From a virus (lineage: Duplodnaviria > Heunggongvirae > Uroviricota > Caudoviricetes), in the IMG/VR virus record IMGVR_UViG_2690316345_000016: a stretch of 8,088 nucleotides of DNA. The stretch is one strand, 5' to 3'. The stretch's first letter is position 1, and every line of letters starts with the position of its first letter. Of this stretch, positions 4,406-4,440 are shown in pieces. The translations under genes were made by a program, and so were the position numbers. The notes under the pieces were generated by a model. It had not been told where the DNA came from. It searched no databases and saw only the letters and a list, made by a program, of their open reading frames with translations.

Positions 4406-4440
4406 AGTCCTCCTGATAAATAAGTCAGGAGGACTTTTTT
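4406..4440 (+). promoter_or_regulatory. Perfect 11-bp stem hairpin plus T-run immediately upstream of terS; the 3' arm contains the terS Shine-Dalgarno sequence
   Basis: agtcctcctga (4406-4416), loop taaataag (4417-4424), tcaggaggact (4425-4435), then T-run to 4440, then ATG at 4441. AGGAGG at 4427-4432 sits inside the 3' arm. Confidence 0.55.

Follow-up and report, generated by a model that had tools for sequence, protein, structure and literature searches.

A terminator-like hairpin that contains the terS ribosome-binding site in prophage-like elements of Enterobacteriaceae

The terS locus and the element around it

The window, by which we mean the whole 8,088-nucleotide stretch of virus DNA analysed here (IMG/VR record IMGVR_UViG_2690316345_000016), includes a gene for a Nu1-type small terminase subunit, terS. 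Its 193-aa product matches PHROG 57 (E = 3e-19), and some relatives match the Pfam family Phage_Nu1 (PF07471). On the 3' side follow terL, of the gpA family, then a head-tail joining gene and a portal gene of the lambda family. The TerS protein of the window is identical to an E. coli protein found on 153 contigs. The features used below run from the nearest gene upstream to terS itself:

3872-4231, minus strand: divergent gene of 119 aa, part of the variable cargo and the nearest gene upstream of the hairpin
4319-4405, no strand assigned: putative cos region, conserved and non-coding (from the abrupt start of homology, recurrence in the family and comparison with lambda)
4379-4408, plus strand: sigma70-like site GTGACA-18-CATAGT, 9/12 matches, with a predicted start at G4415/A4416 within the 5' arm of the hairpin
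4385-4450, plus strand: candidate outer extension of the helix (UUUUAG/CUAAAA, GUA/UGC, AAAA/UUUU), which would include the AUG and codons 2-4
4406-4416, plus strand: 5' arm of the hairpin, AGTCCTCCTGA, with the anti-Shine-Dalgarno (anti-SD) sequence CCUCCU at 4409-4414 (from sequence and fold)
4417-4424, plus strand: loop of the hairpin, TAAATAAG, in which GATAAATA is constant in all variants and the last two bases vary
4425-4435, plus strand: 3' arm of the hairpin, TCAGGAGGACT, in which AGGAGG is the terS Shine-Dalgarno (SD) sequence, at 4428-4433 (from sequence and fold)
4435-4440, plus strand: run of six T's that abuts the terS ATG, its first T being the last base of the stem
4441-5022, plus strand: terS, 193 aa

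Annotated relatives are prophage-like elements of ~35 kb, in which a large serine recombinase at one end is followed by variable cargo and then by the terS-terL-portal-capsid-tail genes and a lysozyme. Repressor, replication and Q-type or other antiterminator genes were not recognisable in these annotated relatives. By means of a large serine recombinase, the family integrates into ybhA or between yeaG and mipA (loci L161/L162 of E. coli ESBLEC_MG48, L110 of AREA_C483 and L058 of G3/10). Its cargo is defence-like, including an ATP-dependent nuclease, GIY-YIG, DUF3800 and PLD proteins, and the tail region is reminiscent of the Rhodobacter gene transfer agent, as it encodes a tail tip fiber protein and domains DUF2163 and DUF6950.

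Several other features can be seen in the left part of the window. At 211-1731, two genes for an HNH endonuclease and a DUF6998 protein form a cassette that may be mobile or serve in defence. Copies with ~83% identity are present in many E. coli chromosomes away from this terS context, and strain AREA_C483 has one with 92%. Positions 1778-1827, which separate the convergent genes 940-1731 (plus strand) and 1831-2142 (minus strand), hold a 15-nt inverted repeat, ACTTCCACCATTCGC / GCGATTGGTGGAAGT, that is 93% complementary, with a 20-nt loop and no T-run. The region 2221-2296 contains a perfect 10-bp inverted repeat of A and T only (2240-2249 / 2257-2266), 5' of the gene 2323-2832. This repeat is flanked by the best promoter-like site of the window (minus strand, TTGATA-17-TATGAT, 10/12) and by a plus-strand site, and the region is possibly a divergent regulatory region.

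The copy of the element in the window is a decayed remnant, with insertion sequences at both ends and a frameshift in terL, and thus the hairpin need not be functional here. An IS3-family fragment occupies positions 1-173 at the left end, and an IS1 end from ~7928 to 8088 truncates the portal gene to 201 aa, versus ~500 aa in relatives. One extra T in terL (window 5447-5461) leaves the gene as two reading frames, 4937-5461 and 5430-6845: the window reads GTG TTA CTT TGA CGA, versus GTG TTA CTT GAC GA in relatives. The sequence that results, CUU UGA C, is the programmed +1 frameshift heptamer of E. coli prfB, with GGUG 3 nt 5' of the CUU; if the ribosome slipped by +1 at this point, the protein made would again be the normal one. 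Three loci from independent assemblies (L007, L127 and L150) share the additional T, and terL is in frame in L006, L091-93, L097 and at least 15 other loci. The split gene could be either a leaky pseudogene or a usable frameshift.

Database annotations of terS also vary. Start calls differ among entries (P0021, P0034-P0047), one of which begins at a TTG in the loop of the hairpin (MINISGGFFMPKT...); the presence of the hairpin accounts for such inconsistent calls. Many entries are 139-150 aa long and labelled partial or hypothetical. Several of these short entries sit on contigs of nearly equal size (~20.7 kb), as would be expected if assemblies repeatedly broke within terS.

Homology across close relatives begins abruptly at 4319, and to the left of this position the cargo differs. 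The conserved block is composed of AGGTACTCC, with which the homology starts, ~17 variable bp, CGCGAGTTTTCGGCACCG and then TATGTGAC...ACACAAAACATA, and the motif recurs throughout the prophage family. On either side of the variable centre, which is 6 bp longer than in lambda, the block is similar to the sequences that flank lambda cosN (..AGGTTACG|GGGCGGCGACCT|CGCGGGTTTTCGC..). We regard 4319-4405 as a putative cos site, in which TATGTGAC...ACACAAAACATA, positioned where lambda R3 would be, is likely the cosB/R3 equivalent. Contig ends were checked as possible physical cos ends, and none stops at the motif. If the block is taken as cos, the hairpin sits between cos and terS.

The hairpin and its distribution among relatives

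In the window, the order of elements is ...ACAAAACAT AGTCCTCCTGA TAAATAAG TCAGGAGGACT TTTTT ATG, where the ATG at 4441 is that of the terS reading frame and AGGAGG lies 7 nt 5' of it. The two arms are complementary at 11 of 11 base pairs, and U4417·G4424 can form an optional 12th pair. The result is a stem of 11-12 bp with six G-C pairs and a loop of 6-8 nt, which has the G+C-rich character of intrinsic terminator stems, and the U-tract UUUUUU directly 3' of it makes the structure terminator-like on the plus strand alone. The original prediction had described a perfect 11-bp stem with a T-run up to the terS start and the SD sequence AGGAGG inside its 3' arm; both statements can be read directly from the sequence, and the hairpin is a real element of this DNA.

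Folding with RNAfold gives -20.4 kcal/mol for the isolated hairpin and -23.1 kcal/mol for positions 4380-4460 (z = -5.4, with 0 of 200 shuffles as stable); the stem is strong. The hairpin is the one perfect inverted repeat of at least 11 bp with a loop of 3-10 nt in the whole window; shuffled windows contain a mean of 0.023 such repeats. In a scan for terminator-like sites it is the strongest by far. Its d'Aubenton-Carafa-type score is +22.7 on the plus strand versus -25.9 on the minus strand. An extended, imperfect helix of ~25 bp with internal loops (4385-4450) is predicted for all variants; informative covariation was not found for this outer helix among the variants, and one of its pairs is broken in L096.

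For comparison with relatives, ~70 loci with TerS relatives were fetched. The hairpin is limited to one sub-clade of the Nu1/gpA-type prophage family of Enterobacteriaceae, whose TerS proteins begin M(P/S)K(T/I)RTNK and have at least ~75% identity to the window TerS. It is part of the constant cos-terS block, to the left of which the cargo changes, and it is unchanged in relatives with 94-96% identity in terS DNA and 54-65% in terL. Copies in which terL, the portal gene and the genes 3' of them are intact (L091-L097, L164-166) carry the hairpin as well.

Two diverged versions of the hairpin keep 11 of 11 pairs. In L096-98 the sequence is AGTCCTTCTGA...TCAGGAGGACT, in which a C-G pair has become U·G; in L009, L093-95 and L164-166 it is AAGCCTCTTGA...TCAGGAGGTTT, with changes of G-C to A-U, U-A to G·U and C-G to U·G. 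The wobble pairs can form in the plus-strand RNA only, since on the other strand they correspond to A·C mismatches. A terminator on the minus strand was considered for the same element and rejected on these mismatches and on its score. In an alignment of 7 distinct rows, 100% of the inner-helix cells are paired, and the differences between rows consist of wobble changes plus a single compensatory one; the covariation is thin, as there are 4 sequence types with one double-sided change, and 70 of 500 shuffles equal the pair statistics.

Outside the sub-clade, relatives have no 5' arm, no T-run and no perfect complement to the SD, as in L099 (ACAAAACATA-ATAATAAGTACTGGAAAGGATTCAAATG), and the absence of the arm appears as a 9-nt gap relative to the window. 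A Rahnella copy looks like the window except that the 9-nt insertion and the T-run are missing and the SD is weaker. The three terminator features thus go together, and from this comparison of sequences the hallmarks of an intrinsic terminator appear jointly on a previously open ribosome-binding region. Whether the stem would be found in homologous phages had been posed as a check on the prediction, and the outcome is divided: pairing is kept in diverged homologues, but the stem is a feature of one sub-clade and not general across homologous phages. The restriction limits the earlier claim and does not refute it.

Wider searches added little. A metagenome scan for further hairpin variants, with a flank pattern independent of the hairpin, gave 4 true matches, all identical, and the contigs inspected for the same purpose contained no new ones. 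Among GenBank phages there was no DNA or TerS match, and terL matches were at most 36% identical. A literature search yielded nothing directly relevant on a terminator upstream of Nu1/terS. One group of L093-type copies (L164-166) has a second hairpin, ACCCCATAG...CTGTGGGGT, of 9 bp and with no T-run, ~130-160 nt 5' of terS, between the co-directional upstream gene and the cos block.

Proposed silencing and release of terS

The effect of the hairpin on translation can be estimated from the computed cost of opening the segment 4428-4443, which spans the SD and the AUG. In RNAs that contain the 5' arm, this cost is 20-23 kcal/mol; when the 5' end of the RNA is at or past 4415, it falls to 5-6.6 kcal/mol. 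The claim that transcripts reading in from upstream would have their ribosome-binding site locked is therefore borne out energetically, and the SD is held in a stable helix, as in the ribosome-binding-site lock of T4 gene e. Because opening is so costly, a productive terS mRNA must lack the 5' arm, and read-through alone cannot yield TerS. In our judgement, the element probably functions as a terminator in plus-strand RNA and as an SD lock.

In the mechanism that we prefer, the hairpin would act as an intrinsic (Rho-independent) terminator on plus-strand RNA, its 3' arm doubling as the terS ribosome-binding site, at the 5' border of the packaging and morphogenesis operon and just 3' of the putative cos. 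Transcripts from the cargo/cos side would carry the anti-SD arm and would mostly be terminated at ~4441-4444, and any read-through RNA would keep the SD and AUG closed and give no TerS. Such an arrangement would protect the lysogen from stray terminase cutting at the chromosomal cos site. Actual termination and this insulating role are inferences, and we hold the insulator reading as a whole, that the hairpin stops and silences transcripts from the cargo/cos side, tentatively, at a little short of an even chance.

The upstream DNA is variable cargo, and its nearest gene points towards terS in some copies (L164-166 and L096). In the window that gene is divergent; hence the hairpin does not end an adjacent co-directional gene, and the origin of incoming plus-strand transcripts is not obvious.

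Productive mRNA would preferably come from a start inside the hairpin, at G4415/A4416, driven by GTGACA-18-CATAGT. This is the only sigma70-like site on the plus strand of the intergenic region, and the pyrimidine-purine step T4414-G4415, 7 nt 3' of it, gives the predicted start at 4415/4416. The window as a whole has no excess of promoter-like sites (12, versus 26.5 expected). The site is weaker in L091, L096 and L097, its -35 element varies (GTGAAG in L091), and the L093-type -10 element, CATAAG, is degenerate, with the key last T missing. In several relatives that lack the hairpin, good -10/-35 pairs are found 15-25 nt 5' of terS (TTAACA-17-TAAAAT in L104 and CTGACA-16-TAAAAT in L001), which suggests a promoter of the operon close to the gene. 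Antitermination, RNA processing and a dedicated start site had all been offered originally as ways of release, along with the idea that the hairpin marks where the late operon begins. Read-through by itself is argued against by the energetics, and a dedicated start fits the sole promoter-like site, albeit a weak one (9/12) that is not conserved in one variant. On this analysis, release by an internal start site is possible but doubtful.

A more specific version would place a double lock, terminator plus anti-SD, around the -10, discriminator and +1 of the packaging operon's own promoter. Foreign transcripts crossing cos would be both stopped and silenced, and terminase would be made from the start at 4415/4416 alone. 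The arrangement would have evolved in one sub-clade of the serine-recombinase prophage-like elements, preventing the cutting of chromosomal cos in lysogens. We consider this full version somewhat unlikely.

Other explanations differ mainly in how, or whether, the SD is freed. The hairpin might be a leader terminator with its promoter 5' of 4406, where a Q- or N-like antiterminator, or an RNA-binding protein that holds the 5' arm, frees the SD in lytic growth. The terminator anatomy is good, the late operon that begins here is long and unidirectional, lambda pR'-tR' with Q is a well-known precedent, and the idea is independent of the weak promoter match. However, no Q, N or other antiterminator gene is recognisable in the PGAP-annotated relatives, in which many small genes have no assigned function, and no good promoter is predicted in 4232-4378. 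A competing antiterminator helix was sought and rejected, as the 5' arm finds no alternative partner and stays unpaired in 4319-4424. A riboswitch or other known RNA family was likewise discarded, since Rfam yields only sub-threshold, generic hairpin matches and none at gathering score. Read-through by itself would still leave the SD closed by ~20 kcal/mol, and close relatives do without a terminator at this position. We regard antitermination as unlikely. Leader-peptide attenuation was rejected as well: of two small reading frames, one of 14 codons (4363-4407) stops where the stem begins and another of 10 codons (4391-4423) runs across the 5' arm, and both are without an SD and are disrupted in L006, L008, L091 and L093. 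Activation of mRNA by processing has precedents in the lambda N leader and the T7 early mRNAs, and here RNase III might cut the ~25-bp imperfect helix, or RNase E the AU-rich loop, to remove the 5' arm and allow translation of terS. The extended helix with internal loops, predicted for all variants, would be the substrate; but its outer part has the broken pair and the lack of informative covariation noted above, its perfect part of only 11-12 bp is short for RNase III, and a processing site has no need of the T-run that co-occurs with the stem. Such processing is very unlikely.

The repeat could instead work as DNA, a palindrome with 11-bp arms and an 8-bp spacer bound by TerS (R sites), by a regulator at its operator, or by LexA at a weak box. 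Its position is that of lambda R2/R1 (PMC4669245, PMC9026076), and the window contains CTG-N10-CAG with an AT-rich spacer. A TerS site analogous to cosB R2/R1 was nevertheless rejected as the main reading. Relatives without the repeat include some in which the TerS helix-turn-helix is identical or differs by 1-2 residues; as the same DNA-binding helix occurs where the 5' arm and T-run are absent, it is improbable that TerS binds at the hairpin. A search nearby for another copy of the arm, allowing up to 2 mismatches, turned up none beyond the two, and the arm is unlike the conserved block 4376-4405, so the three R copies of the lambda type are not seen. Read as DNA, the diverged versions are imperfect palindromes, but as plus-strand RNA they form perfect helices, and a protein-binding site needs neither a T-run nor an exact AGGAGG. 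The LexA (SOS) box was rejected too: CTG-N10-CAG holds in the window and the L096 type, but the L093/L009 type has TTG for the essential CTG, and the match to the 20-bp consensus is poor. A role at the DNA level is very unlikely. Finally, the hairpin might be a constitutive damper with no release, which sets a low level of terminase or silences a decaying, domesticated prophage. The state of the window copy (IS3 fragment, IS1, frameshifted terL) would suit this, and the G3/10 and AREA_C483 copies are also broken by insertion sequences. Against it, the hairpin is kept by pair-preserving changes and is present in the copies with intact virion genes, and a block of 20 kcal/mol would essentially abolish an essential packaging protein; a permanent damper seems quite unlikely.

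If the preferred reading, an insulator, is true, a temperate element would keep its terminase fully silent beside changing cargo that is expressed in the lysogen. The enzyme could otherwise cleave the host chromosome where cos is integrated. Transcription and translation would both be controlled by one element of 35 nt. The hairpin shows where the virion-gene operon begins on its left side in a widespread, uncharacterised prophage-like family of Enterobacteriaceae, and as a compact natural insulator part it might be of practical use. No general concept is changed, as terminators, hairpins that occlude ribosome-binding sites and internal late starts are all well known.

Comparison with known systems

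This conserved regulatory hairpin is real and of a known kind. The closest parallels are the T4 genes e (lysozyme), soc, 49 and I-TevI, in which a hairpin that sequesters the ribosome-binding site has a late promoter inside it (PMC3014915). As in the e-type arrangement, the SD and start codon are in the 3' strand of a stable helix, and long transcripts initiated upstream would be silent. The promoter-like site, if it is used, would extend the parallel, since it is located in DNA for the 5' strand and RNAs begun from it would not include the inhibitory arm. The protected gene would likewise be harmful if mistimed. The hairpin here differs in adding a U-run, which would make it a terminator too. 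The T4 promoters are of the gp55 TATAAATA type, whereas here a sigma70-type promoter is weakly predicted and is not conserved in one variant. The setting is also different: a temperate, prophage-like element in which the gene is terS.

The inverted repeat R2/R1 of lambda cosB, followed by a T-run, lies between cosN and Nu1 (PMC4669245, PMC9026076). The present hairpin is similarly a long inverted repeat followed by a T-run, between a putative cosN and the Nu1-type terS of a gpA/Nu1 system. The lambda arms, however, are 16-bp TerS sites, to which R3 adds a third copy; an IHF site is present too, and the repeat stops 28 nt short of the ATG and leaves the SD uncovered. The window has only the two arms, occurrence of the repeat does not follow the type of TerS recognition helix, and the SD itself lies in the 3' arm.

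Like lambda pR'-tR' with Q, a strong (here predicted) intrinsic terminator heads a long late operon. No Q-like gene or Q-binding/pause signature is identified here, tR' does not occlude a ribosome-binding site, and the lambda late operon starts at the lysis genes rather than with terminase. A further likeness is to terminators at the borders of prophage morons or cargo genes, since the hairpin separates variable cargo, probably expressed in the lysogen, from the virion genes. Unlike those terminators, it belongs to the conserved cos-terS block and not to the variable cargo.
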